Shown here: positions 5,117 to 52,507 of the stretch, piece after piece
Layout: each line of letters starts with the position of its first letter
How positions within the stretch are numbered: position 1 is the first letter of the stretch
Virus record (IMG/VR): IMGVR_UViG_3300017776_000018
Coordinates: 1-52,782 of that record
Length of the DNA stretch: 52,782 nt
Source: a virus
Lineage: Duplodnaviria; Caudoviricetes
Reading direction: 5' to 3' (one strand)
Notes under the pieces: generated by a model
Told to the model about the DNA's origin: nothing
The model's input: only the letters and a program-made list of their open reading frames with translations
The model's database searches: none
Translations under genes and position numbers: made by a program

Positions 5117-6611
5117 CAATCCACGTGAGCCTGTTCTTTGGACTCCAAGAACCCAAGAAATGATGGGAGGTTGGAATCCACGTGAGGTTCTTGACCACGA
5201 CATCAACCCAAATGAGGACGGCGACGGTTTATCTCATCATGGACGTGAAACCCAAGAGGACGCAAGAAGCCGTGATCAGCAAGACCCAAAAAAGCGAAGA
5301 GAACAGGCAATGCGAGAATTGGCGACTCCTATTCCTCATGTCAGCATTCGCCCTGAGAAAATAGACGATACGTTGGGAAGGTCGCCTCAATTTGAGCAAG
5401 AACAACGAATGCTTGAGGCTGGCGTTGGAATGGACTTGAACCGCAACGGCATTGGTTTGTCAAACGGTATGAATGCAGGTTCGGTGCGAAGTGAGGGTCC
5501 AAACATCAAATACGGGCAAAGCAATTCGGTTGTTCCAGCAATGCTTGGGAAGGCAATCAAGAATAATAAATGCAGCAAGTGTGGAAGGGCGGTGTTCATG
5601 GAGGACGACCCAAACAAGTTCTGCATGTTGTGTGAGGCGGGGGTTAAACAAAACAGAAGCCACCCCCCTGTTGAGTTTGACGAACAAATTGACCGACTTA
5701 AAAATAGCAACAATGTGAAAGTTCAGCAGAAAGATTTCAGCGAAGAATGGCAGAAAAAGAATGCCAGCGAGGACATTTTCGAGCAATCATGGGATAGCAT
5801 CAGCAAAGGCAAGCGACGATACAAAGGTCGCCACATGTATGATGATGAGGAATCCGATGAGGACGAGCGCAAGTCAAAGAAAAAGCGCAAGCGAAAGAAG
5901 AAGCGTGAGGGTAAGCGAAAGAAGGCAGCACGTGGAGGTCGCCAGCCCAAATCAATGACCACCAGACGAAAGGGCAATGTCGAAACCGATGTGGATCGTG
6001 GTTCACGTCGTCAAGCCTTCCACCCCAACCTTCATAGCGAGGCGATTAGGGGTGTCGGACGTTCTCGAACAGACCGAATCCCTCTCCGACTTCGTGATCC
6101 TATTGCATGGGAACGTAAGAAAGCAAACGAGCGATTGCGACGACAAGTGGGTTCACTACCAGCAGGTTTGACTCACCATGCTGATACAAGAGGCATGGGA
6201 ACAAAGCGTGGTGCAATTCAGGGCGGTTCTATTGGAAGCGGAACAAAAATGCCAACAGTTGCCCGTATGGGAACATCAACAAAGCGATTCTCAAGGGATG
6301 CCGTAGGCGACCCTCTCAGCACCCACGACCCATTGTTCAACAAATCGGATATTGAAAAATCAAAGTTGAGAATCACCCGTTCCGAACTCATGGCTATGAA
6401 ACGTAAGGTTGAGAAATTGATTCAACAACTCAACAAATTGACCAAGGCTACGCCAGAACTTGGCAACGAAGGCAAGGTTGGCGCACAGGCAAATAGCGAT
6501 ACGGCTTCATCCCCAACAGGCGCAACAAAATTGAATGAAGAGGAAGAACCGTATCGGGCTTTTGTTGATATGGCTTTGGCACAGGAGATGGGTCTTGTAG
6601 GCAAGAAGTGA
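5106..6611 (+). CDS. Modular basic protein, putative internal head protein
   Basis: Central CxxC...CxxC module, K/R-rich tract, FEQSWDSISKG motif and several xxK|A/S sites. Confidence 0.7.
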   Translation: MVVSNPREPVLWTPRTQEMMGGWNPREVLDHDINPNEDGDGLSHHGRETQEDARSRDQQDPKKRREQAMRELATPIPHVSIRPEKIDDTLGRSPQFEQEQRMLEAGVGMDLNRNGIGLSNGMNAGSVRSEGPNIKYGQSNSVVPAMLGKAIKNNKCSKCGRAVFMEDDPNKFCMLCEAGVKQNRSHPPVEFDEQIDRLKNSNNVKVQQKDFSEEWQKKNASEDIFEQSWDSISKGKRRYKGRHMYDDEESDEDERKSKKKRKRKKKREGKRKKAARGGRQPKSMTTRRKGNVETDVDRGSRRQAFHPNLHSEAIRGVGRSRTDRIPLRLRDPIAWERKKANERLRRQVGSLPAGLTHHADTRGMGTKRGAIQGGSIGSGTKMPTVARMGTSTKRFSRDAVGDPLSTHDPLFNKSDIEKSKLRITRSELMAMKRKVEKLIQQLNKLTKATPELGNEGKVGAQANSDTASSPTGATKLNEEEEPYRAFVDMALAQEMGLVGKK

Positions 6612-6616
6612 TTGTC

Positions 6617-8455
6617 ATGCCGTTGGTTGAATTAGATCGGTATCTCATTCGTAAGGGCTACGGTGTTTTCAACATTCACGATTTCATCAACGCCATGCTC
6701 GGTGCTGATAGCGTCGAAGAAGGATATTCTCAATTGCAGCAAAACCACCACGACCTCAGCCATGAGAACTTTGCTGGCGTTGAAGCCGATGCGGTTCAAT
6801 TGGCGTTTCAAATGCAAATGGGCGGATTAACCGAACAGGATAAAGAAATCATTGACCAAAACGGCCATCCTGGTCAAAAGGGTGATTTTAACCAATCATC
6901 GCAACTTTGGTTTCAAACGTTTCAAAAGGCTGTGAACATAGGTGCGCCTCTCGTCAATGAGGCCATCTCAAAAACAAATGCAATCAATCGCAAACGTGCT
7001 GCTGAGGCAGGACACCCGCCGCCAATTGACCTCCCAATGGCTTTTGTTCAAGACAACGGGAATTATGTCGCCGTTCCTGCATGGCGTAGTGCCGTTCAAG
7101 GCTACAAAGAGGATGGAACGCACAACAGGCAGGGTGCGCTTATCACCCAACGTCTTAGCCGATTGACTCACAAACCAGAAGCGTATGCTCGGCCTTACAA
7201 CATCGGTTTAGAAACGTTGAGATCGGAAAAATACCCAAATGTCAAGTTCAAAGACAAGTTCATGGATGAGGTGTTTCCAAACATTCTTCACGGTGATTCG
7301 TTATACATTCGGGACGATAACCTTCGAAATGATTTTGCTTTTGCAGTTCAAAGTGTAAAGCAAAAATACCCTTACTTGCCGTTTGAACAGTTGCAGGGTA
7401 TGGCCTTACAATCACTACGAAGCCTTCCTCAATTCAATAAGTTCGCTGGAATCCGTCATGGCGATGGCCTCAAATACGGAACGCATTCGGAAGAAGCGGT
7501 CAATCAAATGCAAGTTGAACAAAGGCAAGAAAACGCTAATTCGTATGATGAATTGCTCAATTTCATTCATCCTGATATGCGAGAACACGCATCGTTTAGG
7601 CTCACAGGCAACCAAGCATACCACACCGCTACGCCATCACGAAAAATGAAGCGATTGTTTGAACAACATCACGGTTGGGATGAAGAAACGACAAATAACG
7701 TGTATCAAAACGCATATTCAGGCAAGTTCTCTCATCTCAAAAACAGTCGTGATAAGTTGATGGCGGCAGTTCGTGAGCAAGAAATGTTAGATGGAAAGCC
7801 GCCTCAATGGGCGGGTGATGCAATCATGCCACAGGGAGCATCCATCGGTTCTCCTGTTGATGAACAACCATCTCCCCAAATGGAAGAAAGGCCACCTGTT
7901 CAAGAAGCCATTGCGACACCGCCACCTTATCCAGTTCGACCCGACCCAGAACCCCCTAAAATGAATCAGCACATGTCTGGTGCAACGCCAATACCTGTGG
8001 CGAGTCCAGCATCGCCGCCGCCTCAAATGCAACCACAAAACCGACCTCAACCCCCTATGCAACCCCTAAACGCTTATCCCTCAACCTCTCCTGCCGTTCA
8101 AAATACGGGACGTGGGGTTTTGAACAATTTAATGACAAGGCTTGGTTATGCCTACGAATCATTGTTTCCATCCTTCGGAAAAACCGACATGTCCAATGAA
8201 GAGGTATTGACTGAAATGCTTGAGAATGTTCAGTTGGAAATCGCAAAGAAAGAAGTGGTGCAAACCATTTTCACAAAATCTCATCAGTCAATCAGTTCTA
8301 TTGCCGATGTTTCAACTATTGCTAACAGAATAAATCGTCCCAATTCCGACATTGTTTCAATTTATCATAGCCGTGGCGATTGGGAGAACGTAGCAAAGAC
8401 GTTTGGAATGACGCATAAAGAAGTTCAAATGGTGAAGGTGATTTTCAATGAATGA
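6617..8455 (+). CDS. Hypothetical protein with Pro-rich linker and C-terminal HTH-like domain
   Basis: Long ORF; C-terminus GDWENVAKTFGMTHKEVQMVK is HTH-like; N-terminal YLIRK|G. GTG 6608 is an alternative start. Confidence 0.7.
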   Translation: MPLVELDRYLIRKGYGVFNIHDFINAMLGADSVEEGYSQLQQNHHDLSHENFAGVEADAVQLAFQMQMGGLTEQDKEIIDQNGHPGQKGDFNQSSQLWFQTFQKAVNIGAPLVNEAISKTNAINRKRAAEAGHPPPIDLPMAFVQDNGNYVAVPAWRSAVQGYKEDGTHNRQGALITQRLSRLTHKPEAYARPYNIGLETLRSEKYPNVKFKDKFMDEVFPNILHGDSLYIRDDNLRNDFAFAVQSVKQKYPYLPFEQLQGMALQSLRSLPQFNKFAGIRHGDGLKYGTHSEEAVNQMQVEQRQENANSYDELLNFIHPDMREHASFRLTGNQAYHTATPSRKMKRLFEQHHGWDEETTNNVYQNAYSGKFSHLKNSRDKLMAAVREQEMLDGKPPQWAGDAIMPQGASIGSPVDEQPSPQMEERPPVQEAIATPPPYPVRPDPEPPKMNQHMSGATPIPVASPASPPPQMQPQNRPQPPMQPLNAYPSTSPAVQNTGRGVLNNLMTRLGYAYESLFPSFGKTDMSNEEVLTEMLENVQLEIAKKEVVQTIFTKSHQSISSIADVSTIANRINRPNSDIVSIYHSRGDWENVAKTFGMTHKEVQMVKVIFNE

Positions 8456-9419
8456 TGATTTGATTTTGCGAGCAAGGCTACATCAGCAAGGATGGTCGGA
8501 CGATCAGATTGAGAAATACATCGGACAACGCTTTGTTCAAGGGGCTAAAAATCTGGCTGGTAAATACAACCAATCAAGAGCCGCAGGGCATCAAGGTGCA
8601 TCGCTTGGGCAACGTTTCTTACCTGGTGGCAAACAACGCTACATGGACGCATCAGGTAAGGGCGTAAGGGATTACAACAAAGAGATGAAAGACCAAGCCG
8701 CAACAAAACAACAGGAGGCTCGAAATGCACAAGCCGCCCGTATGCAAGGAAAAGGCGTAGTTCCATCAACAAGTGCGGAAGCCCCATTGATGAGAGATCC
8801 AGTCAAAGACCCTGCAACGGGGCAAGGAACAACTCGCACCGATCTTGCGGCAGCAACCGTAGGAGATGGTTCACAAAACGGCTTATCAAATGTGCCTGAT
8901 GAAGTCAAAAACACAACAACAACTCAAACCATGCCTGATGGTTCCCAAAACGTGTCAAACGTTCAAGACATCACGATGAACGCAAACGCAAACGCAAACC
9001 CACAACAACCTGCCGCACCACAACAACCTGCCGCACCTCAACAACCTGCCGCACCTCAACAACCTGCAACGGGTGTTGATTCAAATGCACGTGCGGCTGC
9101 TCAACAGGCAATGGTGCAACAGGATGCGGCTACAATCCAGCAAGGCGAAGGTGGCCCTAAGCAATCATGGTTGAAAAACCGTTCTTTCGGAGGGAAAATA
9201 GCAGATATTTTTTCGGGTGGCCTTACGGCGGGTTTTGGTGAAACAGGCGTTATTGGACGAAACAAAGCAAATCAACAGTCGCAACAACAAAACCAAAAAT
9301 ACCAAGACGCACTACGACGACAAACCAACATGGCAAAATCAATGGAACTTTACCGTGATGTGATTTCACGCCGTCAAATAATCCAAGAACGCAACACGAC
9401 TCATAATCTCCGACGGTGA
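8448..9419 (+). CDS. Q/A-rich low-complexity protein
   Basis: AAGGTGA RBS; PQQPAA repeats. Confidence 0.75.
   Translation: MNDDLILRARLHQQGWSDDQIEKYIGQRFVQGAKNLAGKYNQSRAAGHQGASLGQRFLPGGKQRYMDASGKGVRDYNKEMKDQAATKQQEARNAQAARMQGKGVVPSTSAEAPLMRDPVKDPATGQGTTRTDLAAATVGDGSQNGLSNVPDEVKNTTTTQTMPDGSQNVSNVQDITMNANANANPQQPAAPQQPAAPQQPAAPQQPATGVDSNARAAAQQAMVQQDAATIQQGEGGPKQSWLKNRSFGGKIADIFSGGLTAGFGETGVIGRNKANQQSQQQNQKYQDALRRQTNMAKSMELYRDVISRRQIIQERNTTHNLRR
9000..9068 (+). repeat. 18-bp coding tandem repeat (PQQPAA, about 3.8 copies)
   Basis: CC(A/T)CAACAACCTGCCGCA units. Confidence 0.9.
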
Positions 9420-9423
9420 TACG

Positions 9424-11751: not shown

Positions 11752-11761
11752 GGTGATATGA

Positions 11762-13198
11762 ATGTCCGAAGCCATGAATCAACTTGCAGCACAGGTTGAT
11801 TTTGAAATGGGGCGGAAGGACTTCAAATACTTCTTCGAAGAGATTTGTGGAAAGTTTGATGAGAAGTTCCCTTGGATTCTCACCAAGTTTCATCAAGAAT
11901 GGTTTGATATGTCCGAAAACAACAGCAAAACCTGTATCATTGCCAGCCGTGATCATGGCAAGTCCGTGTTTTACCGTGTTTATCTCCTATGGAAAATGGC
12001 TTACAATCCAGGCACAGAAGTTCTGTTTTTCTCACACAGTCAGCACCAGTCCATTGAACACATGGGCAAAATGAATGAACTCATCGAAGCCATTCCTGCA
12101 CTACAACATCTCAAACCAAAGCGAGGATGGGCGAAGCAGAAGTTCAAGTTCACCAACAAATCATCCATCTCGGCTATGTCCGTCGGCAAAGCAGTTCGTG
12201 GGGCGCACCCTCAAATCGTAGTGCTTGACGATATTTTGTCAAGTGAAGCCCAAACGCAACTCAAGCACATATCATCATGGTTTTACACGGCACTTCTTCC
12301 TGTTCTCCACCACACCGCCCAACTGTGCATTGTTGGAACTCCGTTTTCCTACACCGATCTTTACGCTGAACTCAAGAAGTTGAAGTCCTATGCGGTTCGT
12401 GAATATCCCGCCATCAATGAACAAACAGGCGAACCATTGTTCCCTGAACGCTGGTCGTTGGAAGCATTGAACAACCGTCGAAACGACATGACCTCAATTG
12501 CATTCACACGTGAATACCTGTGCAAACCGATTGCCAGCGAAGCGAGTCTGTTCCCTGAAGAGGTGTTGAATAAAGTCAAGGATGAGGAATTAGCATTGTC
12601 CTATTATCCACATGATGGTGAATCCTACAACTATTACATCGGTTGGGATCCTGCAATCTCAGCAGATAGGAGAGCCGACTACACGTGCATGATGGTTGTT
12701 GCCGTTGATGAAAACAAAAACAAACACATTATCCACACACACCATGAGAAGGGGATGGACTTCTCATCTCAAATTGACAAAATCATTGAACTTAACGCCA
12801 GATTCAATCCAGTTATCATTGAACTTGAGACAAACAACTTCGCATTGGCGTTTAATCAAGTGCTAAACGAAATCAGCGATTTGCCGATAAAACCCTTCAA
12901 TATGAGCCGAATGAAGAAAGAGGCTTTAATTCATACCCTCCAACTGCAATTTGAACAGGGCAAGTTGTCAATACCCTACAAAGACGAAGGAGGGACACGG
13001 AGATTGATGAACACTTTATTGACTGAACTCTCCACGTTCACCATGTTGGACAACGGACGCATGGAAAGTTTAGGGGGCCACGACGACATGGTTATGGCAC
13101 TTGCATTGAGCGTTCAAGCAACCAAGGAATATCGAGATAGTATCGTGATTTTAGATGCTGATGTTTGGCAAAACAGGTTAGGGTGGGCAAATGTTTGA
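11762..13198 (+). CDS. terL: Terminase large subunit
   Basis: Walker A ASRDHGKS, Walker B IVVLDD, coupling motif VGTP, nuclease IGWDPA and HDDMVMALAL; GAGGTGA RBS. Confidence 0.95.
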   Translation: MSEAMNQLAAQVDFEMGRKDFKYFFEEICGKFDEKFPWILTKFHQEWFDMSENNSKTCIIASRDHGKSVFYRVYLLWKMAYNPGTEVLFFSHSQHQSIEHMGKMNELIEAIPALQHLKPKRGWAKQKFKFTNKSSISAMSVGKAVRGAHPQIVVLDDILSSEAQTQLKHISSWFYTALLPVLHHTAQLCIVGTPFSYTDLYAELKKLKSYAVREYPAINEQTGEPLFPERWSLEALNNRRNDMTSIAFTREYLCKPIASEASLFPEEVLNKVKDEELALSYYPHDGESYNYYIGWDPAISADRRADYTCMMVVAVDENKNKHIIHTHHEKGMDFSSQIDKIIELNARFNPVIIELETNNFALAFNQVLNEISDLPIKPFNMSRMKKEALIHTLQLQFEQGKLSIPYKDEGGTRRLMNTLLTELSTFTMLDNGRMESLGGHDDMVMALALSVQATKEYRDSIVILDADVWQNRLGWANV

Positions 13199-14429
13199 GG
13201 GTCGAATTGAGGGCGTGTTTGGCGTTGAGTCGCCAGAAGATGTGCTAAAGTTGCTTGATGAGAAGTTGATTTCACAGGAAATCAAGAATAATCAGCAAGA
13301 GGCCAAGTTGCTTCAACAAAAAAAGAAGGCGGCGGCAAAACAACCCCAAGAAGGGGCAGGAAGCCCACGTGAGGATGCGGCCATTGAAGGTCTTGATGCA
13401 GATAACATGGGTGGGGGAGATACCCAACCTGGAACTCAGGTTCAAACAGAATCCTCGCCTTTGCCCATGACAAAGACTTGGTTTGCTGATAACTTCGGAA
13501 TGCAAGGCAACGAGATTGTTGATTTGCTCATCAAGTCTGGGCGTGATGAATTGGTGTCAATGATTCAGCCCTTGATTGTCCAAGAACGAATGGCTTTGCT
13601 CAAATCATATCCCTCGGTTTCACCAGATTTAGTTCATACCTTGCCCTTCACCGATTTTGATTGGGAGATTTTGCAGAAGAACCACGAATCATTGGCGATA
13701 CCATTCCGAAGGTTTGTCAAGAGTTGGACGGATGGCAACATGGATGCGTATGAGATTTGGGCGAGCCGCATATCAAAATCGGAACGCCTCAGCATCAATG
13801 AGCGCAAGGTGTTGGAGAAAACACAAGCGGTTCTTGACAGTCATGGAAGCATGAACGCTCAAGCCCTGCAAACACATGGAGTTCCAGAAACCACCCGAAA
13901 AATTGCGATGCTGATTAAATCACACGGTTTCCTCTATGACATTGAGCCATTTGGTTTAGGGTCAAAGCACAATGACAAAGGATTCTTTTACGGACTCAAA
14001 AAGCATGATGTGTTCGTCAAAGACGCAGGGGCTTTGGTTGGAGATCTCTATGAGATGGGCGGCTCAATTGAAATCAGTCCACGTGGAACTCCACGCTTGA
14101 TTCTCCCTTTCAATTCAAAAGTCTGTAAGGAATATGCTCATGCCCTCAACAATGAAATGGGCGTGAGAGGAATTATAGCCGAAGGCGATGGGTTGGTGAT
14201 TGAGGGGGAAGCCTCAGTCGTTAAGGCGATTGATGTTTCTTTGCCTCATTTGAAGGAAAAGAAGGGAGAAGTGAACATTTTGCGAAAGGCACTTGAGGAT
14301 GATGAAAAAGCCATCATGTGCTTGACTTACGCCCATTCAAAACCACAAAAACAAGTTCGCTTGTTGAAGTCTTGGAACCTATCGCTCGAAGCATTTGAAG
14401 AGATGAAGGAGGCCGTAGCAAATGGCTGA
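13191..14429 (+). CDS. Protein with wHTH-like region and degenerate LAGLIDADG-like C-terminal domain
   Basis: VGDLYEMGGSIEISPRGTPRL...LVIEG...SLPHLKEKK resembles the LAGLIDADG fold; the catalytic Asp position is Gly. Confidence 0.6.
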   Translation: MFEGRIEGVFGVESPEDVLKLLDEKLISQEIKNNQQEAKLLQQKKKAAAKQPQEGAGSPREDAAIEGLDADNMGGGDTQPGTQVQTESSPLPMTKTWFADNFGMQGNEIVDLLIKSGRDELVSMIQPLIVQERMALLKSYPSVSPDLVHTLPFTDFDWEILQKNHESLAIPFRRFVKSWTDGNMDAYEIWASRISKSERLSINERKVLEKTQAVLDSHGSMNAQALQTHGVPETTRKIAMLIKSHGFLYDIEPFGLGSKHNDKGFFYGLKKHDVFVKDAGALVGDLYEMGGSIEISPRGTPRLILPFNSKVCKEYAHALNNEMGVRGIIAEGDGLVIEGEASVVKAIDVSLPHLKEKKGEVNILRKALEDDEKAIMCLTYAHSKPQKQVRLLKSWNLSLEAFEEMKEAVANG

Positions 14430-16236
14430 TAAGGAGAGGATGGAACGTCTATTTTCCGCCATTGGCGTTGATATGGAGAGGCACACAACGCCTATGCCGA
14501 CAATGCCATTGTTTCAATCTGGCATCCAAGAACCGCCTTTGTTGCAGGGTATTACCATTCCCGCCCTATACGCTGCAACATTTGAATGCGTAGTTCTCCG
14601 ATCCATTCTCAACCACCTTGCAGTTGAAACATTCCGTAAAGGGTATGGATGGAAGCCAAAGTTTGTTGTCAAGTGCAGGGAATGTGATGAAGAATACCAT
14701 CAAGAAGTTGAAACCTGCAAGTCCTGTGGCGGTGAGGTTCGCAAAGCCGACAAAGGGCAAATTGAATACGCTCAAGCGTTGCTTGAGAGCAAGAACGGCA
14801 TGATGCAGAACTTCGTGGAAATCATGAAAGAAATCGAAATGGATTTGAACGTCGTTGATGATGCTTACCTTATCCTCACAAAAGAATACTTTGTGGACCC
14901 AGATACGAAGAAGGTCATGTTTTTCCGTGTTAAGGAGATTACACGTGCCGACCCTATTTTCATGCGTATGCTTGCCGATAAGCGAGGTGTGCGTGGCGGA
15001 AGCCAATACACCAGCCTTGTTGATAGGACATTCCGCACCAGCGACCCAAAGGACAAATGCCCCACAACGGGAATGCCTGTTGTTCCTATTCACTACATGA
15101 ACCTCGCTGGTGTTGGAAAAGGACAAGTCTATACCGAAGGCGAAGTTATTCACGTCAGCAAATGGTCGCCATCCAAATTGTATGGCCGTAGCCCTGTTGC
15201 GACGATGTGGCGACAGGTGAACACACTTATTGCGATGGATAACTACGTCTATTCGGCATATCAAAAGAAGCGTATGCCCCGTGGCGTGATGGTCATTAAA
15301 TCGTCCAACATGGAAACCGTTGAGCGAACCGCACGAAACATTCAGGAACACCTTGAGCGTGATCCTTCTTACATTCCAACCATCGGTGTTGAAACCGAAT
15401 CTGGGCGTGGCGGTCTTGAATACGTGCGAATGATGGACACTCTCGAAGAACTGCAATACATCCCTATCAAAGACGACATTCGCCAGCGTATCGCTGCATT
15501 CTTTGGCGTGTCCAACGTATTCATGAATGACGTTTCAGGTGGTGGCCTTAACAATGAGGGTATGCAAATTGTTGTGAGCAACCGAGCCGTTGCCTACGCT
15601 CAATCTATTTACAACCGCATTTTGTTCCCTCAAATTGTTGAAGCATTTGAAGTGAGCGAATGGGAATTGATTCTCAACCCGCATGAGGAAGAAGATGAAA
15701 TCATGCAACTCCGACGTGATGAGATGGCTATTCGCAACATGATGCAGATGAAACAGGCTGGATATGATGCAAGCCTACGCGATGGTATAGACGATAAAAT
15801 CCTACACTTTGACTTCAAGCAACCCGATCCGCAGGAAGTTGCTGCCGCCCAAGCCGCCCAACAACAGGCGCAACAGGGTGGCGGTGGCGGTCAAGCACCA
15901 CCAGTTCAAAAGACGGATGAATTGATTGACGACCCAGAATTGATGTTCAAGCGAACCAATTTTGATGCAAGCAGGGGGTCAATTCCATTCTCGGATTCCC
16001 TCGCTACAACTGCTGGAACAGGTTTGCCTCCTTTGAGAACCATTAGCCAAAACACCAGGAATAGCGGGGGTTCAAGCCCCGATATGGTTCGAAGGGTTGA
16101 TGGTGCGCCAACGGGGGCATCCGTGAAAACCGATAAACGAGAACACAAAACGCCTCAAGAAAAAGCCATTGACCACCAAATCAAGGAAACAGAAAAACGC
16201 AAAGGTTTGGGCGGTTCAAGGGGCAATAGTCAATAA
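14422..16236 (+). CDS. Portal protein with Zn-ribbon insertion
   Basis: Position after terL; EVIHVSKWSPSKLYGRSP, PRG and IAAFFGVSNVFM portal motifs; CRECD...CKSCGG insertion. Confidence 0.9.
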   Translation: MADKERMERLFSAIGVDMERHTTPMPTMPLFQSGIQEPPLLQGITIPALYAATFECVVLRSILNHLAVETFRKGYGWKPKFVVKCRECDEEYHQEVETCKSCGGEVRKADKGQIEYAQALLESKNGMMQNFVEIMKEIEMDLNVVDDAYLILTKEYFVDPDTKKVMFFRVKEITRADPIFMRMLADKRGVRGGSQYTSLVDRTFRTSDPKDKCPTTGMPVVPIHYMNLAGVGKGQVYTEGEVIHVSKWSPSKLYGRSPVATMWRQVNTLIAMDNYVYSAYQKKRMPRGVMVIKSSNMETVERTARNIQEHLERDPSYIPTIGVETESGRGGLEYVRMMDTLEELQYIPIKDDIRQRIAAFFGVSNVFMNDVSGGGLNNEGMQIVVSNRAVAYAQSIYNRILFPQIVEAFEVSEWELILNPHEEEDEIMQLRRDEMAIRNMMQMKQAGYDASLRDGIDDKILHFDFKQPDPQEVAAAQAAQQQAQQGGGGGQAPPVQKTDELIDDPELMFKRTNFDASRGSIPFSDSLATTAGTGLPPLRTISQNTRNSGGSSPDMVRRVDGAPTGASVKTDKREHKTPQEKAIDHQIKETEKRKGLGGSRGNSQ

Positions 16237-16264
16237 ATAGAAGGTTATGCGAAAGGTGAGCGAG

Positions 16265-16891
16265 ATGTCATTTGCACACGATTTGTTATTGCGAGCGTAT
16301 CAAGGTGTGGACCATGACGCTCGAATCACAAGCCATATCGCACAAGGGCGGGAGTCGTCTGGGATTCCTGAAACAACACGCCATGACGAATTACAAAATC
16401 GCCCTCGCGATCCGCAATCCCCTGAAGCACAACACAGCCGACATGTGCGGCGCAAATGGGGGGGTCGCAAGTCGGGTGAAAAGCCGAATGCCCCAATGGT
16501 AAGCGGCGACGAAGAATACGCAAAACAAAAAGAGATGAGAAAAATGACAGATGAAAACCAAATCATTGCGAAAATGGACCCAATGGCTCGACGTGCGTTG
16601 GCCGCAATTGAAGGCGTTCAAAAAGCCATCAAAGCAAACGACACCGACGGTATCAGCGCAGGAATCATGGCTGCTGAGAACGCTTTGGCTATGCTCAAGT
16701 CCGACCTTGACCTACACGACCAAATCACAAAAGCCATGTCCAAGACTCAAACCGCAGAACGTTTCATGGGCGTTATCCCTCAATATGACAACAACGCATC
16801 CGACTACAACGGGACTGAAAACGCAGTTGCTATGGGTGTGAGCCGTCATGGTCGTGCGACTGGCTTCTTTACGCCTCATAGGATTGTGTGA
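16265..16891 (+). CDS. Hypothetical head-region protein; possible second start at 16544
   Basis: AAGGTGA RBS before ATG 16265; internal GAGATGAGAAAAATG resembles the MCP leader. Confidence 0.65.
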   Translation: MSFAHDLLLRAYQGVDHDARITSHIAQGRESSGIPETTRHDELQNRPRDPQSPEAQHSRHVRRKWGGRKSGEKPNAPMVSGDEEYAKQKEMRKMTDENQIIAKMDPMARRALAAIEGVQKAIKANDTDGISAGIMAAENALAMLKSDLDLHDQITKAMSKTQTAERFMGVIPQYDNNASDYNGTENAVAMGVSRHGRATGFFTPHRIV

Positions 16892-16896
16892 TAACG

Positions 16897-17648: not shown

Positions 17649-18796
17649 GCGCACAATGGTTTAACCCACTTGAAGAAACCGCAGAAGGTCGTTTGTTGAA
17701 AGACGTTCAAGACCTCTTGAAAGAAGTCAAGAACAAGGATAAAGCCGATCTTGACAAAGACGGCAAATTGTCTGGCTACGAAAAGAAACGTGCAAAGGCG
17801 ATTGAGTCCTCAATGGCTAAGGACGGCTACAAATCAGATCGTGGTCAAAAGCCAGCACCCAAGTTGCCGAGTTCAAAGGGCAGCAAGACGGTGATAAAGT
17901 TTGACATGTCCGACAATTGCCCCAATTGTGGTGCAAACCCGCATGAAGAATGTGGGAAAATGGGCATGAACCATGAAATGCGAGCAATTGATTGCATGAA
18001 GAATCCTATCGCCTTTGACTCTCGATTTGATGATGCAAGGCAGCATTCCATCCTTGAACACGTTGATGAAGGACATGGTTCAATGCTCATCGCACGTTCC
18101 GATTCAAAGAACACCGAATGCTCAATGTGCATGAGCGAGATTGGAAAGAACCAAGACTGTTCAATGTGCATGAGCGAAGTCTCAAAAGCCGACATGGATG
18201 AGAAGAACAAATACTGTCAAAAGCACTTTGGATGCAATTATTCCCAATGCACATCTAAACAAAAGGCACAATGCGACAGGGAATGTGGCAAGGAACTCAA
18301 AAAATACAGTCAAGAGTCAAGCGTTGAGAACCTATTCCCTCGCTTCCAAAACGTGGATGGCGGAATGCCAGTCAATGCACATGGATTCACAACCAGGGGA
18401 ACATACCCCGCAACCAATGACGGCCCTAAGAAATCCATTGTGAGCGAAACGGCAAAAATGCCAGCATTCGCTAAGACGGAATACACCCCAAAGGGAAGCA
18501 GCCTACACATGCACTACAACGATGCTGGCGGCACACGTGCTAATCCACCAAACATTGACACCATCGAGCAACGCCTTGCATCCTTGACCAAACATGCTGG
18601 TCGCAACAATTTGGGAATGATCGGTGAAATTGAAGGGTTGTTGAAGCAGGTTAAAGACCATCTCGCCAAAGCCGAAGGTTGTAGGCGTTGCCAAGATGAA
18701 TCCGACGATTTTTTCGATACGGTGGACTTTGGGCGAATCTGTTCCGACTGTTATGAGGAATTGGATGATGAGGGACGCATCAAAACGTATCGTTGA
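17645..18796 (+). CDS. Modular Cys-rich protein (several small Zn-binding modules and an EF-hand-like motif)
   Basis: DLDKDGKLSGYE; CPNCG; duplicated CSMCMSE; CQKHFGC..C..C..C; terminal CRRC...CSDC. Confidence 0.75.
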   Translation: MSAQWFNPLEETAEGRLLKDVQDLLKEVKNKDKADLDKDGKLSGYEKKRAKAIESSMAKDGYKSDRGQKPAPKLPSSKGSKTVIKFDMSDNCPNCGANPHEECGKMGMNHEMRAIDCMKNPIAFDSRFDDARQHSILEHVDEGHGSMLIARSDSKNTECSMCMSEIGKNQDCSMCMSEVSKADMDEKNKYCQKHFGCNYSQCTSKQKAQCDRECGKELKKYSQESSVENLFPRFQNVDGGMPVNAHGFTTRGTYPATNDGPKKSIVSETAKMPAFAKTEYTPKGSSLHMHYNDAGGTRANPPNIDTIEQRLASLTKHAGRNNLGMIGEIEGLLKQVKDHLAKAEGCRRCQDESDDFFDTVDFGRICSDCYEELDDEGRIKTYR

Positions 18797-22236: not shown

Positions 22237-22246
22237 ACCATATCCC

Positions 22247-22278: not shown

Positions 22279-23643
22279 ATGGCGACCACACTCGACCTTC
22301 AAACGGCATCGTGGAATGCCGAAGGTTCGGACTTCTTGTTGAAGTCTGTTGGAAGTGCTGGTGAACTTTACGTCGCTGGCTACGCATCTGTTGATATGGT
22401 GGACAAGCAAGGAGATAGAATCCCTACCGCCGCACTAAAGAAGGCATTCGGCCAATTCATGGATAACAAAGCGTTTCGAAATGTTCAGTTGGCTCATTCT
22501 GGTATTCAAGTTGGTGAGGTCGTTGCAGACCACACCGATTCCCAAGGTCGTGTTTGGAAGTCCGAAGTGGACGACCACGGCCTGTTCGTCGTGTGCAAAA
22601 TCCGCAACGACATTCAAAAAGCACGTGAAGTGCAAAAGCAAATCCGCAATGGCGATTTGCGAGCGTTCTCGATTGGCGGTCAAGCCTTGTTTCGTGTTAG
22701 CAAAACGACACCAGAACTTGGAAGCCATCGAGAGATTACCGATCTTGAATTGCATGAAATTACGCTATGCAAGAAAGGTATCAACCCCGAATCAACCTAC
22801 ACAATACTGAAAATGGAAGATGATAACATGAGCAACACAGAAGTTTTGAACGAAATTAAGGCTGGACTGAGCGAAGTTCTCAAAGAACTGAGCGAAAAAG
22901 AAGAAACCAAAGAGGACAAATCCTACAAAGAGGACAAATCCTACAAAGGCGACATGATGCGAGAAGAGGAAGAGGGACACACCCAAAAGTCCGAAGAAGC
23001 AGCCCTTGACTACATCACCACACTTGAGAAGTTTGCTCACGAATCTGGTGTGGACTTGAACGGCCTTCGTGATCACTTCGGTTTGGAGAAGGCTTACCTT
23101 CTCGAACAAGGTCGTGGCGGCTACTCTCACCGTGGACAAGGTGATGAAGTCGGGTCTGGCGAGGATGCTTCCGAGCCAGCATACCCCTCCCTTCCAAGTC
23201 CTGGTGGCAACCAATACGTCATCAAATCCCCAAGTGTTCCAAACATGAACATGAATGCACCTTCTGGCAACCAAAACGTTGTGAAGTCCTTGACTCCTGA
23301 GATGTTGGAGAAGGGCTACCGCACCTACGCTGCTCTCCGTGATGAAGAAGCAGTTAAGGGACTGGTTGAGAAGGAATGGCAAGACCGCTACCACGCTGAA
23401 ACGGCTCACGCTCTTGAAGTTCGCAAGCAAAACGATGTTGGAGTCCAACTGAACTCCCTACGTGAAGAGATTGCTATGCTCAAGTCCGAGAACGCATCCC
23501 TACAAAAGAGCGAAGTTGCACCTTCGACTCCTTCCACCTCCATTCGTGTGCCAACACATGGCGAGTTTGCCCAGATGGGCAATGACCTTGATGGCTGGCG
23601 AGCAGCAGAAGCACTTGCTCAACGTGCGTTGCGAGGCGAATGA
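22279..23643 (+). CDS. HK97-type prohead maturation protease fused to a scaffold-like C-terminal region
   Basis: VAGYASVDMVDKQGD, catalytic His (LAHSG), Ser (AFSIGG) and LHEITL...INPES; acidic coiled-coil C-terminus; directly upstream of the MCP. Confidence 0.9.
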   Translation: MATTLDLQTASWNAEGSDFLLKSVGSAGELYVAGYASVDMVDKQGDRIPTAALKKAFGQFMDNKAFRNVQLAHSGIQVGEVVADHTDSQGRVWKSEVDDHGLFVVCKIRNDIQKAREVQKQIRNGDLRAFSIGGQALFRVSKTTPELGSHREITDLELHEITLCKKGINPESTYTILKMEDDNMSNTEVLNEIKAGLSEVLKELSEKEETKEDKSYKEDKSYKGDMMREEEEGHTQKSEEAALDYITTLEKFAHESGVDLNGLRDHFGLEKAYLLEQGRGGYSHRGQGDEVGSGEDASEPAYPSLPSPGGNQYVIKSPSVPNMNMNAPSGNQNVVKSLTPEMLEKGYRTYAALRDEEAVKGLVEKEWQDRYHAETAHALEVRKQNDVGVQLNSLREEIAMLKSENASLQKSEVAPSTPSTSIRVPTHGEFAQMGNDLDGWRAAEALAQRALRGE

Positions 23644-23652: not shown

Positions 23653-23671
23653 ATGGAGATGATGAAAAATG
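23653..23671 (+). repeat. 19-nt leader/RBS repeat, copy 1
   Basis: ATGGAGATGATGAAAAATG, identical to 24831-24849. Confidence 0.85.
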
Positions 23672-24817
23672 ACGCAAGGCTACATTCGAACAATTGAAGA
23701 TATGGAACGGCTCTATTACGGGGCTGGCGCAGGAACCAACGCATGGGCTTATTCGGGAACGGATTTGCTCAAGGCCGACAGTCCCTTGATGTCCTCCACT
23801 TCTGGAACCTACCAAGCGATCTTTGGCCGCAAGGTCTGGTCGCAACTGAACCAAGAGTTCAACGCATTCTCCATTCTCCCCAAGAAACCTTGGGAGAAGT
23901 CGGGATGGCGTGTCGTGACGGGCAAGCCCGATGATGCCGTCGGACTTCCTGAAAACGGAACGCTACCAGACTCCACCAAGCCAACCTTCGAAGAGGTTTC
24001 CACGAAACCCAAGACGGTTGCTTCCAAGTTTGACCTCAGCGAAACCGCCATGTTCCTTGCCGACAAGGATGATGGTTTGGGCGATGCAAGAGCCGTTATC
24101 AAAATGGAAATGTCCAAGTCTCACGCCGAGAGCATCAACAAAATGCTTCTCAAGGACATTGACACGACGGCAGGAAACACCTTTGAGTCCATTGACCGAG
24201 CCACCTCGTCGTCTTTGACTGAAACCGCCGCTTTTGCCGACGTTTCGGCTCTTGCCGACCACAACATGTATTCCATCACCCGCAACTCAACGGGAACTCG
24301 AAGTTGGTTTGATGCAAACGTGGATGCTGGCGCAACTGGGGCCGAGCGACCTCTCACCCTCAACATTCTTGACGGCATGTTCCGTGAAGTCTGGGAACGT
24401 GGTGGTCAGCCCAAGGTCATTCTCACGGGCTACGACACCATCGAGAAAATCCAACAACTCTTGCAGCCTCAGCAACGATTCACCGAGATGAAGCGTGTTT
24501 CTCCATCCGTGAACGGCGTTCAAGGAATCCCAGGCATGGAGGGCGGCTTCGTTGTCGCCACCTACAACGGCGTTCCAATCATCCCTGCAAAGGACGTTCA
24601 CAACCCATCTGGCGGAATCAGCCGCATTTACATGCTCGACACCGACTACATGTATTTCTGCACCGCCAAGCCCACGCTTTACCATGAGTCGGGCATTGAA
24701 ACGGGCGACCCCTTCGGCATCAACCGTTTGGGACAGGTCGGCCTCTTCCACACGATGGGCGAACTTTGGCAACTCTTCTATGGCGCACACGGCAAAATCC
24801 GTGATTTGAGCGCATGA
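23669..24817 (+). CDS. Major capsid protein (HK97 fold)
   Basis: Position after the protease; 382 aa; VWSQLNQEFNAFSILPKKPW and YNGVPII motifs typical of archaeal tailed-virus MCPs; strongly biased codon usage. Confidence 0.92.
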   Translation: MTQGYIRTIEDMERLYYGAGAGTNAWAYSGTDLLKADSPLMSSTSGTYQAIFGRKVWSQLNQEFNAFSILPKKPWEKSGWRVVTGKPDDAVGLPENGTLPDSTKPTFEEVSTKPKTVASKFDLSETAMFLADKDDGLGDARAVIKMEMSKSHAESINKMLLKDIDTTAGNTFESIDRATSSSLTETAAFADVSALADHNMYSITRNSTGTRSWFDANVDAGATGAERPLTLNILDGMFREVWERGGQPKVILTGYDTIEKIQQLLQPQQRFTEMKRVSPSVNGVQGIPGMEGGFVVATYNGVPIIPAKDVHNPSGGISRIYMLDTDYMYFCTAKPTLYHESGIETGDPFGINRLGQVGLFHTMGELWQLFYGAHGKIRDLSA

Positions 24818-26537: not shown

Positions 26538-26852
26538 ATGCCACGATTTGAAATTGCAGATTTTGACCTTGAAACGTCAATTGAAATCAAGAAACGTCGC
26601 AACACACGTATGTTTGAACTCATGACCTCTCAAGGGTCAATTGCTGAGGATCAATCACCATTTAGCCGTGAGAACATGGCTAAGGCTCAATCTCGCTTTG
26701 TGAAGATAAACAAACATGAAGCGAGGGATATTCAAAATATCGGCTCAGGAACACGTTGCACATCATGTGGACTACTCCACTTTTTGTGGACTCCTGAATG
26801 TGCCGTTTGTGGAGAACCAATGCACTTCAACTTAGGAGGACATCACCAATGA
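26538..26852 (+). CDS. Small protein with C-terminal Zn ribbon
   Basis: RCTSCG...ECAVCG; ATG 26538 avoids overlap with the previous gene. Confidence 0.7.
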   Translation: MPRFEIADFDLETSIEIKKRRNTRMFELMTSQGSIAEDQSPFSRENMAKAQSRFVKINKHEARDIQNIGSGTRCTSCGLLHFLWTPECAVCGEPMHFNLGGHHQ

Positions 26853-27157
26853 GCGATGATAAACCATACGACGATGTAAAGCCGAAAGAGGACAAATACG
26901 GCATGATGAAGCCGAAGAAAAAGACTCCACGTGAAGTCATGATGGAAACCCCCCCTCAAAAAATGAAGAAGGATAAGCCTTTCACAAAAGCATGGGACGA
27001 TCTCATCAAGTTCGGTGATTGCCCCGTTTGTGTGGGCGACCCAATGGCTTGTCCTACTCCTGATGTTCCAGCATCGGCTTGTCCAACTCGAAGAAACGCA
27101 ATCAAACACATGATGCGAGGAAAGGGCGCACGACCCCCAATGGTTCTCCGTGATTAA
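26849..27157 (+). CDS. Small modular protein (F-x-x-A-W motif followed by Cys module)
   Basis: AGGAGG RBS and ATGA overlap; PFTKAWDDLIK|FGDCPVC...C...C. Confidence 0.7.
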   Translation: MSDDKPYDDVKPKEDKYGMMKPKKKTPREVMMETPPQKMKKDKPFTKAWDDLIKFGDCPVCVGDPMACPTPDVPASACPTRRNAIKHMMRGKGARPPMVLRD

Positions 27158-43029: not shown

Positions 43030-43033
43030 TTGA

Positions 43034-50608: not shown

Positions 50609-50609
50609 G

Positions 50610-51014: not shown

Positions 51015-51015
51015 T

Positions 51016-51357: not shown

Positions 51358-51791
51358 TGTCCGACTTGAAAAAGAAAAAATGTTGCTGCGGTGCAACTGA
51401 AAAGAATCCCTGCGCTTGTATGAAAAAGGGAATTATGAAATGTTCAGCAAAAGAGCCTATGTGCCAATGCTACAAGGACTTGAAGAAACAGGGCAAGCAC
51501 CCTGCTGATTTGAAGAAATCATTCAATGGTGCATGGTTGATTATGAAGGCTGATGAGGCCGACGTTGGCATTTGCGATGGTTGCATGGAAACCGCCTTAA
51601 TTGGTCGTCTTTCAACGGGTCAAGGCAATGCTTTGCTTTGCTACGATTGCTGGCGAAAGGAGATGCAATGGCGGCATTTAAGAAATGTGGACCTGGAAGA
51701 ATCAGGAGGCTACGTCCACCCCAACGATTATTTCGAAATTGAAACATGGCCGCATAGCGACATGGAACCTGGAATGGAGGGCTACCAATGA
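51357..51791 (+). CDS. Metallothionein-like Cys cluster plus Zn-finger modular protein
   Basis: CCCG..CAC..C..CQC; SFNGAWLIMK|A; CDGC...CYDC. Confidence 0.7.
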   Translation: MSDLKKKKCCCGATEKNPCACMKKGIMKCSAKEPMCQCYKDLKKQGKHPADLKKSFNGAWLIMKADEADVGICDGCMETALIGRLSTGQGNALLCYDCWRKEMQWRHLRNVDLEESGGYVHPNDYFEIETWPHSDMEPGMEGYQ

Positions 51792-52507
51792 GCGATTATG
51801 ACCCCTATGCGCCAAGACCACTTTCAGGATTGGCAAGAGGGCAACATGATTCATACGCTCCAACTTGGATGAACAAGGTGATTGAACCCGCAGAATACAC
51901 CGAGGACGGTCGAAGAATACGAATGAAAGGGCTTACTGAGGATGAAGCCAACATGGTGCGAGATGAATTGAAACATGGAAATGAGGTGAGGACGGCTCCC
52001 GATGGGACATTCATGCTGCTTCACGCTGATCATCCTCGATATAATGAAGGAACAGATTACTCACAGGGTTCGCCTAAACGCATTGCCATGATGGAAGCAT
52101 ACCAAAAAAGGAATGAAGAATACCGAAAAAAACACGGGTTGAAAAAAATGAACGATGAAACATTTGAGATTGCATGGGAACTGATGAAAAGCGACGAGAA
52201 GGGCGACAACGCCCCAACCAATCCTGGTCTTTGGGCGCAAGCCAAATCAAAGGCACGTTCTAAGTTCAAGGTTTATCCGTCTGCCTACGCCAACGGTTGG
52301 GCTGCTAAATGGTATAAATCCAAAGGTGGCGGCTGGAAGAAGAAAGGCAAGAGCAACAAGAAAGTGAAGAAATCCGACGATGAAGGATGGACTGATAACG
52401 ACCTTCAATGCCGAATGTGCAAATACGTTCAAACCCCTGAAGAATGGGAAGCAAAGAACTGTAAAAAGTGTGGGACAAGGAATATGCTTCATCCGTTTTG
52501 GCGTTGA
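51788..52507 (+). CDS. Three-module protein (unknown / basic YPSAYA module / Zn ribbon)
   Basis: TFEIAWELMK|S; PTNPGLWAQAK..KFKVYPSAYANGW; VKK|S...CRMC...CKKC. Confidence 0.7.
   Translation: MSDYDPYAPRPLSGLARGQHDSYAPTWMNKVIEPAEYTEDGRRIRMKGLTEDEANMVRDELKHGNEVRTAPDGTFMLLHADHPRYNEGTDYSQGSPKRIAMMEAYQKRNEEYRKKHGLKKMNDETFEIAWELMKSDEKGDNAPTNPGLWAQAKSKARSKFKVYPSAYANGWAAKWYKSKGGGWKKKGKSNKKVKKSDDEGWTDNDLQCRMCKYVQTPEEWEAKNCKKCGTRNMLHPFWR

Follow-up and report, generated by a model that had tools for sequence, protein, structure and literature searches.

Exchangeable cysteine-rich mini-domains and Lys-ended sites in the structural gene module of a magrovirus-like archaeal tailed virus

Several predicted proteins of the virus studied here contain small Cys-rich stretches that stand a few residues behind a Lys. 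The question raised by this locus is whether such placement marks a set of exchangeable units that are cut free from their carrier proteins. This had been proposed in a first-pass annotation, according to which seven distinct zinc-finger modules would be released by cleavage after Lys, and gained and lost as cassettes.

The window (the whole stretch of 52,782 nucleotides that was analysed) encodes TerL, a portal, an S78 prohead protease and an SU10-like major capsid protein (MCP); it comprises the structural half of the genome of an archaeal tailed virus of magrovirus-like type, without the replication half. The MCP is 31.6-31.8% identical to those of the haloarchaeal siphoviruses HVTV-1 and HCTV, the same level as the 33% reported for magrovirus MCPs (PMC5434244). 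The Magrovirales are recognized by an MCP, portal and protease nearest to those of haloarchaeal siphoviruses at about 30% identity, in marine genomes of about 100 kb (PMC5434244); the MCP of the window falls at this level of identity, and the contigs of its relatives reach 107 kb. A blastn comparison of the protease-MCP region with INPHARED gave no match, and 9 of 10 proteins had no PHROGs family, the sole match being phrog_27331 (function unknown) on a part resembling DUF5872. In the surface ocean, magroviruses count among the archaeal viruses of highest abundance.

All seven Cys strings quoted in the first-pass annotation were found in the translations of the ORFs named, with their coordinates re-checked (Table 1), and their common placement was confirmed, with [LIVM]-x-K lying 4-13 residues before the first Cys in every case. 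Using a mechanical definition (at least four Cys, or three with a CxxC, and gaps of up to 25), we counted 12 Cys clusters in the 45 plus-strand ORFs of the window. A [LIVMF]-x-K ended at most 13 residues upstream of 9 of them, as compared with a background for random positions of 0.27 within the proteins concerned and 0.20 over all proteins (binomial P of 7e-4 and 7e-5, respectively, in a post hoc test). The carrier proteins are Lys-rich (10-12.6% K), and two of the nine Lys-preceded clusters are trivial cases, involving "DLKKKK" and an "LFK" 10 residues upstream.

Table 1. Lys sites, Cys modules and associated features of the window (a site ends at the last K shown; h, hydrophobic residue)
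Feature	Position	Strand	ORF	Remark
Lys site 1, MLGK	5541..5552	+	5106	degenerate leader motif
Module A, CxxC-x14-CxxC	5571..5633	+	5106	Zn-ribbon-like
Lys site 2, FEQSWDSISK	5778..5807	+	5106	10-residue form of leader motif
Portal Zn ribbon, CRECDEE..CKSC	14674..14727	+	portal	integral domain
TVIK site	17888..17899	+	17645	left edge of hypervariable middle
Module B, CPNCGANPHEEC..C	17918..17995	+	17645	
Module B2, CSMC-x9-CSMC	18119..18169	+	17645	
EVSK site and module C, ADMDEKNKYC..CDRECGKELKK	18176..18304	+	17645	5 Cys
HLAK site and module D, CxxC-x19-CxxC	18659..18751	+	17645	variable C-tail
S78 prohead serine protease	22279..23643	+	protease	Pfam PF04586; fused to scaffold-like C-terminal part
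DLLK site	23762..23773	+	MCP	N-arm (K35), followed by AD
26538-ORF Zn ribbon, CTSCG..CAVC	26757..26810	+	26538	integral; no Lys site
Leader FTKAWDDLIK and module E, CPVC..C..C	26981..27082	+	26849	
Module F0, CCCGAT..CAC..C..CQC	51381..51470	+	51357	8-9 Cys in 30 residues
Leader FNGAWLIMK and module F, CxxC-x19-CxxC	51522..51650	+	51357	PSSM 19.6
Leader FEIAWELMK and DUF5872-like module	52163..52363	+	51788	basic; PSSM 27.7, best of window
KVKK site and module G, CxxC-x14-CxxC	52361..52471	+	51788	C-terminal add-on

While the strings and their placement stood, metal binding, the count of seven distinct modules and the completeness of the list were not confirmed as worded. The distinctness of modules D and F is doubtful, since they agree both in Cys spacing (C-x2-C-x19-C-x2-C) and in their best, weak Pfam match; the list lacked B2, F0, the ribbons of the portal and the 26538 ORF, and the motifs of the 3894 ORF. 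The Cys motifs of the 26538 and 3894 ORFs have no Lys site within 13 residues. The stretches are probably for the most part Zn ribbons or knuckles. Two CxxC (or CxxH) knuckles about 10-25 residues apart are present in A, B2, D, F, G, the portal and the 26538 ORF; of the modules labelled as zinc fingers, only A, D, F and G show the canonical CxxC..CxxC form. CxxC pairs 14-19 residues apart, as in the Pfam ribbons and zinc knuckles DZR, Zn_Ribbon_1 and A2L_zn_ribbon, occur in A, D, F, G, the portal and the 26538 ORF, whereas C, E (CxxC-x6-C-x9-C) and F0 carry other Cys patterns, outside the knuckle spacing. No module exceeded its Pfam cut-off (best E values 6e-4 to 0.004, 16-20 bits against cut-offs of 22-29), and C, E and F0 gave no Pfam match of any kind. 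Module C is predicted to be a Cys-bearing helical hairpin.

The idea of gain and loss as cassettes was borne out by comparison of orthologues. The Cys stretches are small, independently evolving mini-domains, which have been inserted, lost, duplicated and moved between genes of related genomes, and which are strung like beads along Lys-rich and mostly disordered regions of head-side and accessory proteins. In the families of the 17645, 5106, 51357 and 51788 ORFs, modules are present, absent, replaced, duplicated or relocated, their edges mostly coincide with hydrophobic-x-Lys, and B, C, D, F0 and G also turn up in other genes of relatives.

In the 17645 family (19 distinct aligned sequences) the conserved core begins after [LIV]-x-K in all 19 sequences, while the middle part and the C-tail hold differing modules, none, or tandem copies of one. 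Module B, which weakly matches Pfam Phage_zn_bind_8 (E 6e-4, below the cut-off), is present in 6 of the 19, and is found at the N-terminus of other ORFs in loci L075, L093, L105 and L109. Micro-inserts resembling B2 were seen in 4 of the 22 representative relatives, within the linker between protease and scaffold. Module C (C-x5-C-x4-C-x7-C-x3-C) closes with ELKK ahead of the conserved core; it occurs as a tandem duplicate in L001, L003 and L004, and at the N-terminus of the orthologue of the 26798 ORF in L069 and L072. A Cys tail is carried by four sequences, the tail of the others being absent or Cys-free, and a homologue of module D stands alone behind a leader in L090 (positions 2648-2884). 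In an AF2 model built with 15 orthologues (mean pLDDT 50), module C alone was modelled confidently, as a helical hairpin (pLDDT 74-83), with values below 50 across B, B2 and D. The 17645 ORF product has no similarity to gp114 ("head assembly") of HVTV-1.

Replacement is also evident in the 5106 family, in which the segment between the two Lys sites contains CxxC..CxxC in 5 of the 8 distinct orthologues; in the remaining 3 its place is taken by an acidic stretch of unrelated sequence that lacks Cys. Relatives carry FESVWGSIIK at the position of MLGK, and the second site, with h-x-K in all 8 orthologues, ends the variable segment ahead of a conserved basic C-terminal part. The Pfam matches of module A were all sub-threshold (A2L_zn_ribbon, E 0.0035).

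At the other end of the window, module F0 keeps 8 invariant Cys in 9 of 9 sequences, occurs in at least four gene contexts, and in every case the F..[AG]W part of the leader comes next (F56 and W60 invariant). Module F was found in a single relative (L085); other relatives have a different payload, or none, after the motif. The VKK/SDDEG site quoted for the 51788 ORF (a slash follows the Lys) exists, but the strongest site of this ORF is FEIAWELMK/SDEKG (52163-52189). The module behind it (DUF5872, E 4.8e-4, below the cut-off) forms an ORF of 68-72 aa opening with the leader in L082, L084 and L085. Module G is missing from these stand-alone ORFs and turned up once elsewhere, closing a multi-module ORF of 290 aa in L167.

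Other Cys motifs do not behave in this way. The Zn ribbons of the portal and the 26538 ORF are integral domains, not cassettes: all four portal Cys are kept in 26 of 27 distinct portals, one having lost all four without an indel, and the K after the ribbon is replaced by P, D or R in six portals, while the 26538 ribbon is present in all 26 distinct neighbourhoods, with its nearest h-x-K 15 residues upstream. Module E, which had been counted among the cassettes, is an invariant part of its family, with no change of K54, C58, C61, C68, C78 or R81 in any of 18 sequences. The 26849 gene that encodes it is missing from 7 of 26 neighbourhoods, and its shortest forms (57-63 aa) open directly with the leader. 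In an AF2 model with 18 relatives (pLDDT 64) a helix of residues 44-54 ends at K54 and module E is a coil at pLDDT of about 70.

The Lys sites themselves are of two kinds, an amphipathic motif F-[DE]-x-A-W-x-h-h-K and a simple h-x-K, often followed by [AS][DE]. Four sites of the window end in the former motif, and only two of these are among the seven quoted earlier; according to a PSSM, the other five (MLGK, VIK, VSK, LAK and VKK) are not leader motifs. In relatives the motif is a 12-residue N-terminal leader (MTAFDTAWxLLK) of tandemly arrayed, otherwise unrelated genes. In L178, for example, consecutive genes whose stop and start codons overlap each open with MTAFDTAW.L.K and continue with unrelated sequence. 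As a strict W..h.K expression misses the 9-residue form, a pattern of two lengths and the PSSM were used instead. The four strict matches of the window are all in coding frames, with none in the other four frames; the DNA pattern gave 16, 12, 11, 12 and 3 matches in the records of five relatives, clustered and on the coding strand, and 0 in a backwards control. Among 11,225 distinct ORFs of 213 loci we found 264 instances (backwards and shuffled controls, 2 each), of which 209 are N-terminal (first 25 residues), 49 internal and 6 C-terminal. Per genome, leaders are borne by about 10-16 genes. HVTV-1 has no leader match, and in IMG/VR the exact MTAFDTAW pattern is limited to 32 stretches.

The 257 leader payloads fall into 107 clusters, 22 of which are Cys-rich. 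The Lys-ended signal is therefore not specific to Cys modules; cassette behaviour is real, but it is tied to this signal rather than to zinc fingers as such. One payload is a D12 N6-adenine methyltransferase and another has an ADP-ribosyltransferase-like lead; nine leader-bearing payloads of L178 gave nothing with Pfam. Other readings of the leader were also considered, as judged by sequence alone. A class III or Sec signal was rejected because no hydrophobic stretch follows, a PIP box because the pattern is wrong, and a membrane-targeting helix because the leader is net acidic.

The candidate enzyme for the Lys sites is the S78 protease (PF04586 over residues 25-183, E 2.4e-10, 41.2 bits against a cut-off of 21), which is 26% identical to the prohead protease of HVTV-1. 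The fused protease-scaffold has its own Lys sites: DF[LI][LM]K, Y[ST][IL]LK/M, VIK and [VIL]IK are common to all 22 representatives, within otherwise variable, low-complexity stretches; h-x-K/S near the C-terminus is also shared, in most of them in the form LQK. The HVTV-1 protease has VVSK/ADGD at the position of TILK/MED of the window, and in the MCP DLLK[AS]D is kept in 57 of 57 sequences and aligns with MSK/ADN of the HVTV-1 MCP (32% identity). The ending h-h-K is common to the leaders, the MCP (DLLK) and the protease-scaffold (FLLK, ILK, VIK). Moreover, h-x-K[ASG][DE] is enriched about four-fold in head-side proteins (16 observed versus 3.8±1.9 expected), with 5 versus 2.5±1.6 in tail-side proteins, 22 versus 6.9 over the whole window, and 23 versus 37.6±5.3 in 169 ORFs of unrelated phage loci. 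A complex prediction of MCP, protease-scaffold and a 40-residue leader segment scored 0.00 in two runs, in which the controls were not folded, and is neutral on binding.

Taken together, these patterns suggest an explanation to which we assign a probability of roughly 0.45. The leader would dock its protein into the assembling procapsid, and the S78 prohead protease would cut after Lys, at the leaders as well as at the simple sites. The leader would thereby be removed and multi-module proteins divided into separate pieces, which would remain in the head and pass into the host together with the DNA, the Cys modules being one class among many payloads. Payloads would be exchanged in frame by recombination, either between leader codons that are nearly identical or at the short linkers of the Lys sites, and this would account for the cassette behaviour.

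Several observations count against parts of this explanation. Because MCP residues 1-35 can be aligned with HVTV-1 and are conserved like the remainder, the mature protein may include them. The F0 proteins of L093 and L109 end in a motif without K, module G of L167 is preceded by SWDDLEEG, again without K, and VVK and VRK directly adjoin the portal ribbon on its two sides, although this ribbon is part of a conserved domain. For the 26849 family the motif could be an integral helix of the domain, given that its K lies 4 residues away from the first Cys and that module E never occurs without it (18/18). With regard to packaging, 10-16 leader genes per genome are a large cargo for a single capsid.

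Alternatively, the leader might be an uncut helix that docks onto a host factor or a viral non-virion hub, with intact beads-on-a-string proteins whose Cys fingers bind nucleic acids or proteins within the cell. The internal and C-terminal instances would suit such a position-independent binding peptide, the leader is an amphipathic helix in the AF2 model, the methyltransferase and the ADP-ribosyltransferase-like payload resemble intracellular effectors, and in the 26849 family K54 is as invariant as the Cys ligands. We nevertheless regard this possibility as unlikely: it leaves unexplained the enrichment of h-x-K[ASG][DE] confined to head-side proteins, the invariant Lys sites of the scaffold linker, and the borders that lack the F..AW part and still fall on h-x-K, and the motif-bearing 5106 and 26849 ORFs lie within the morphogenetic module. 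It is less probable still that there is no functional link at all, and that Zn ribbons, as frequent decorations of archaeal and archaeal-virus proteins that come and go easily, tend to lie in Lys-rich disordered linkers with many h-x-K, so that their "same placement" reflects composition and paralogy. The 9 of 12 clusters (P of about 7e-4 against the background of the carrier proteins), the duplicated units and indel edges exactly on K in the 17645 and 5106 families, the same modules in stand-alone ORFs directly behind a leader, and 264 motif instances against 2 in controls all oppose this interpretation. It draws on the chance rate of 0.27 itself, on the portal and 26538 ribbons as ordinary integral domains, on the Cys micro-inserts of the acidic protease-scaffold linker, distant from leaders, and on a K-to-first-Cys distance that varies from 4 to 13.

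We consider it very improbable that the leader is mainly a joint at the DNA level, i.e. a 36-nt start region for in-frame recombination, gene conversion or coupled translation, the peptide itself having no role. Such a joint would agree with the identical codons TTCGACACCGCTTGG in 6 of 11 leaders of one array, with the 4-nt stop/start overlaps of the array genes, and with Met after K in 54 of the 264 instances ("MP" in 48), a pattern that insertion of the leader just ahead of a pre-existing start codon might leave. However, all 11 aligned leaders keep F, W and K while differing at synonymous codons, which indicates selection on the peptide, and the internal, C-terminal and 10-residue variants have been kept where a role as start region is impossible.

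The preferred reading, capsid targeting followed by cleavage, has precedents. In phage T4 the internal protein (IP) genes lie in a variable locus, and the site of the protease gp21 ends in Glu. The T4 IPs and Alt carry an N-terminal capsid targeting sequence (CTS) of 10-20 residues, which is removed by gp21 (PMC7411985). We infer Lys-site cleavage and capsid targeting by analogy with this sequence: in both cases a short N-terminal peptide is found on unrelated proteins (small ones in T4, IPI-III and Alt; 209 of 264 instances and 107 clusters here), and in T4 it ends in a protease site (PMC7411985). Alt is an ADP-ribosyltransferase, which recalls the ADP-ribosyltransferase-like lead of one payload. 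The T4 payloads are carried in the head and ejected (PMC7411985); those behind the leaders are predicted to be. In contrast to the T4 CTS, with which it has no sequence similarity, the leader ends in Lys rather than Glu, may also be internal or C-terminal, and precedes far more families of payload (107 clusters), in viruses of an archaeal host. The protease also differs, belonging to the S78 (HK97-like) Pfam family; it matches Peptidase_S78, with no T4-type family among the matches listed.

HK97 gp4 belongs to the same Peptidase_S78 family; the match spans the protease domain only, the long scaffold-like fusion being a difference. In HK97, gp5 is cut after Lys by gp4, and the protease is targeted via a terminal tail. 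Encapsulin cargo-loading peptides are likewise short terminal peptides that dock diverse cargo inside an HK97-fold shell; their consensus differs from that of the leader, and they are usually C-terminal and remain uncleaved. Polymorphic toxin and MuF systems combine a conserved targeting part with variable C-terminal payloads swapped by recombination, the conserved part of MuF-type systems being a whole domain rather than a 12-residue peptide in front of payloads that are at most putative toxins. In giant phages (SPN3US gp245, phiKZ-like) many head proteins are processed at one short motif, and their propeptides have been proposed to target proteins into the prohead (PMC7411985). Those propeptides, defined by mass spectrometry, measure 111-130 aa (PMC7411985), as compared with the 12 aa of the predicted leaders.

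The main texts of the magrovirus papers examined do not mention zinc, cysteine, leader or N-terminal, and use "motif" only for helix-turn-helix; a literature search for "capsid targeting sequence" with "archaeal" returned only unrelated work. Even without cleavage, a 12-residue leader on about 10-16 genes per genome and over more than 100 payload families, and the free shuffling of Cys-rich mini-domains among head-module genes, both appear to be undescribed.

A broader proposition, which we regard as tentative and rather doubtful, is that magroviruses use MTAFDTAWxLLK as a universal procapsid ticket and protease cut site, co-injecting more than 100 fast-evolving families. If this were true, Zn/Cys micro-domains, ADP-ribosyltransferase-like and methyltransferase enzymes and cut polyproteins would enter the host together, and magroviruses would possess an archaeal counterpart of the T4 internal-protein system, more diversified and readable from sequence. 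A leader that acts as a packaging signal would also be a ready tool to load foreign proteins into HK97-fold shells. As a packaging or cleavage signal, it would allow the virion cargo of abundant uncultured archaeal viruses to be listed from sequence, and, if packaged, this cargo would be the likely set of first-minute effectors against their Poseidoniales hosts.

All seven strings of Lys site and Cys module quoted by the first-pass annotation were found in the window, and the Lys sites proved to be of two kinds: a leader motif, F-x-x-[AS]-W-x(1,2)-h-h-K (h, hydrophobic), and a plain h-x-K. Two of the quoted sites (26981 and 51522) carry the leader motif, whereas a PSSM assigned MLGK, VIK, VSK, LAK and VKK to the plain kind. 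The motif occurs at four sites of the window, all in coding frames, and the other four frames of the window contain none. Among relatives it forms the N-terminal leader of entire gene arrays: in locus L178 (G001:19500-28500), tandem genes whose stop and start codons overlap by 4 nt each start with MTAFDTAW.L.K, followed by unrelated sequence. Tandem arrays of the same type (MTAFDTAWxLLK, unrelated payloads after the leader K) are present in L179-L182. The back-translated pattern gave 16, 12, 11, 12 and 3 matches in five related records, clustered and on the coding strand, with 0 in a backwards control. That the motif is mainly a recombination joint at the DNA level seems improbable. Composition plus paralogy alone is a somewhat less remote but still quite unlikely explanation of the common placement of the Cys modules. 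In 11,225 distinct ORFs (213 loci) the leader was counted 264 times, versus 2 each in reversed and shuffled sequences. The best-supported reading, drawn from sequence, is that the leader would serve as a procapsid docking signal for the proteins that carry it, that the S78 protease would cut after the Lys, and that the payloads would be kept in the head.

Several observations speak indirectly for the putative cleavage step. The pattern h-x-K[ASG][DE] was observed 16 times in head-side proteins versus 3.8±1.9 expected, 5 times in tail-side proteins (2.5±1.6 expected) and 23 times in 169 ORFs of unrelated phage loci (37.6±5.3 expected). In the protease-scaffold, the Lys sites DF[LI][LM]K↓, Y[ST][IL]LK↓M, VIK↓ and [VIL]IK↓ (↓, putative cut point) are common to 22 of 22 representatives within variable, low-complexity surroundings, and a shared h-x-K↓S, mostly LQK↓, lies near the C-terminus. 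The end of the protease domain is aligned to VVSK↓ADGD of the haloarchaeal virus HVTV-1, and the DLLK[AS]D of the major capsid protein (MCP), present in 57/57, to its MSK↓ADN. The HVTV-1 MCP (annotated as 457 aa) has about 70 additional N-terminal residues and two h-x-K↓AD sites, LRK↓ADG at 70 and MSK↓ADN at 102, the latter aligned to K35 of the window. Against cleavage stand the fixed K-to-Cys spacing in the family of module E (26849 ORF; ORFs are named by their start), a G module (51788 ORF) with no preceding K, F0 proteins (51357 ORF) whose terminal motif lacks K, the integral portal ribbon directly flanked by h-x-K, and an MCP N-arm conserved equally to the remainder of the protein. The leader might be a docking helix that is not cleaved, which we consider possible, if rather unlikely.

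Leader motifs, leader-bearing genes of relatives and morphogenetic genes
Feature	Coordinates	Strand	Evidence
Leader motif	5778-5807	+	pattern match
Leader motif	26981-27010	+	pattern match
Leader motif	51522-51548	+	pattern match
Leader motif	52163-52189	+	pattern match
Two leader-bearing candidate enzymes (methyltransferase; K↓[AM]PYHGT family)	L082:3969-5207 and L178:6016-6645		
Large terminase	11762-13198		Pfam
Portal	14422-16236	+	Pfam
Peptidase_S78 prohead protease with long scaffold-like tail	22279-23643	+	Pfam, E 2.4e-10
SU10-type MCP	23669-24817	+	Pfam

The leader is N-terminal in 209 of the 264 instances, internal in 49 and C-terminal in 6. Its K is followed by A in 64 and by M in 54, often with P next; K↓MP occurs in 48, as though a leader had been added ahead of an older start codon. 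The 257 payloads of at least 30 residues fell into 107 clusters, only 22 of which are Cys-rich directly after the K. One payload is a D12-class N6-adenine DNA methyltransferase (Pfam E 1.3e-6). In the ESM Atlas the family starting K↓[AM]PYHGT lies nearest to DUF3990 and DarT/PARP-like clusters, which is no more than a lead towards ADP-ribosyltransferases. IMG/VR has 32 stretches with the exact MTAFDTAW coding pattern, several on contigs already recognized as those of relatives; HVTV-1 gave no match to the leader motif.

By a mechanical definition the proteins of the window contain 12 Cys clusters, and [LIVMF]-x-K ends at most 13 residues upstream of nine of them; these proteins are rich in Lys, and their background rate is 0.27 (binomial P = 7e-4, in a post hoc test). 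The ribbon of the 26538 ORF has no Lys site and is kept in 26 of 26 distinct neighbourhoods. The seven listed modules are present, but the list had passed over B2 (17645 ORF), F0, the portal and 26538-ORF ribbons and the motifs of the 3894 ORF. The N-terminal Zn ribbon of the portal (14674-14727) is retained in 26 of 27 distinct portals; the remaining relative, in which all four ribbon Cys are replaced with no indel and no change in length, is a case of classic ribbon loss. Both ribbons are ordinary integral domains.

Orthologues were compared for the 17645 ORF (19 distinct sequences) and the 5106 ORF (8 distinct). The 17645 family has a conserved N-part, a hypervariable middle and a conserved core, which starts after [LIV]-x-K in 19/19. 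Module B is present in six sequences and module C in eight, three of which (L001, L003, L004) contain a tandem duplicate with a repeat unit running from ADM to GKE[LV]SK; the L069 orthologue has zero Cys. The C-tail holds a Cys module in 4/19, a non-Cys tail in 2/19 and nothing in the remainder. In the 5106 family two Lys sites bracket a variable segment, which contains CxxC..CxxC in 5/8 and an unrelated acidic stretch without Cys in the other three, where the first Lys site is a full FESVWGSIIK. Modules also occur elsewhere: C at the head of the 26798-orthologue (L069, L072), B at the head of the 16247-orthologue (L075) and of other ORFs (L093, L105, L109), D alone behind a leader (L090), and F0 and G upstream of the 5106-orthologue (L167, L172-L177). 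The proposal that modules are indels bounded by Lys sites is supported in these two families, but not for module E, a fixed part of the small protein that contains it: K54, R81 and four Cys are invariant in 18/18, the gene itself being missing from 7 of 26 neighbourhoods. Four of 22 representative relatives (L024, L028, L039, L061) have a micro-insert, CS[VM]C..DC.GC, in the acidic linker that follows the protease domain; the protease-scaffold of the window lacks it.

Canonical two-knuckle patterns were recognized in modules A (5106 ORF), B2, D, F (51357 ORF) and G, while Pfam matches to the modules were all sub-threshold, with none for C, E and F0. AF2 modelled most of the 17645 ORF with low confidence (pLDDT 50); the only confident part, module C, came out as a helical hairpin. 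For these reasons the designation "Zn finger" is plausible for most modules, as judged by their patterns, but doubtful for C. F0 (51381-51470) is metallothionein-like (CCCGAT..CAC..C..CQC; 8 Cys per 30 residues), and its Cys are invariant in 9/9 relatives. In every case the F..[AG]W part of the leader motif comes next, so that the motif is here C-terminal to the module, and the F0 proteins of L093, L090 and L109 end at the motif or just past it. EF-hand-like Ca-loops occur in the 17645 ORF (DLDKDGKLSGYE, residues 30-41, 17732-17767) and in the ORF at 3611-3937 (DQDGDGDFDMDD). Since the former is an indel among orthologues (missing in L024 and L030, elsewhere in the protein in L080), Cys types may not be the only metal-binding mini-modules. 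In its conserved C-terminal half the 5106 protein (5106-6611) has both an acidic stretch, DDEESDEDE, and a strongly basic one, KKKRKRKKKREGKRKK; it might act as an internal protein that condenses DNA.

The window, 52,782 bases long, comprises an entire virus record, and nearly all of its long ORFs lie on the + strand. A DNA-level search of the INPHARED phage collection (blastn, protease-MCP region) gave no match. The MCP matched 11 records at the protein level, the best being the haloarchaeal siphoviruses HVTV-1 and HCTV (~32% identity); as the relevant section of Philosof et al. gives 33%, "solely" to haloviruses, for magroviruses (PMC5434244), we treat the window as magrovirus-like and infer that it is the structural half of such a virus. 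MCP relatives in IMG/VR number 253, on contigs of up to 107 kb. Upstream of the morphogenetic module lies a P-loop GTPase-like ORF (1093-1827; GTP_EFTU E 6e-4, below the cut-off), and low-complexity repeats occur within ORFs at 8448-9419, (PQQPAA)x4, and 2827-3471, (GM)n, with GGMGGMGGMG at the C-terminus of the ORF at 16888-17337. Neither a leader of this kind nor Cys or Zn modules came up in the main text of the magrovirus papers examined, though their supplements may list domain annotations, and a literature search combining capsid targeting sequence with archaeal returned only unrelated papers.

To conclude, the proposed scheme of leader, cut and retention would work like the capsid targeting sequence and internal-protein system of T4, as outlined in the pertinent part of PMC7411985. 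It does not belong to that system, however: homology is absent, the protease comes from another family, the P1 residue is different, and here the scheme is predicted from sequence alone. The Cys modules would be one class among the payloads retained in the head.
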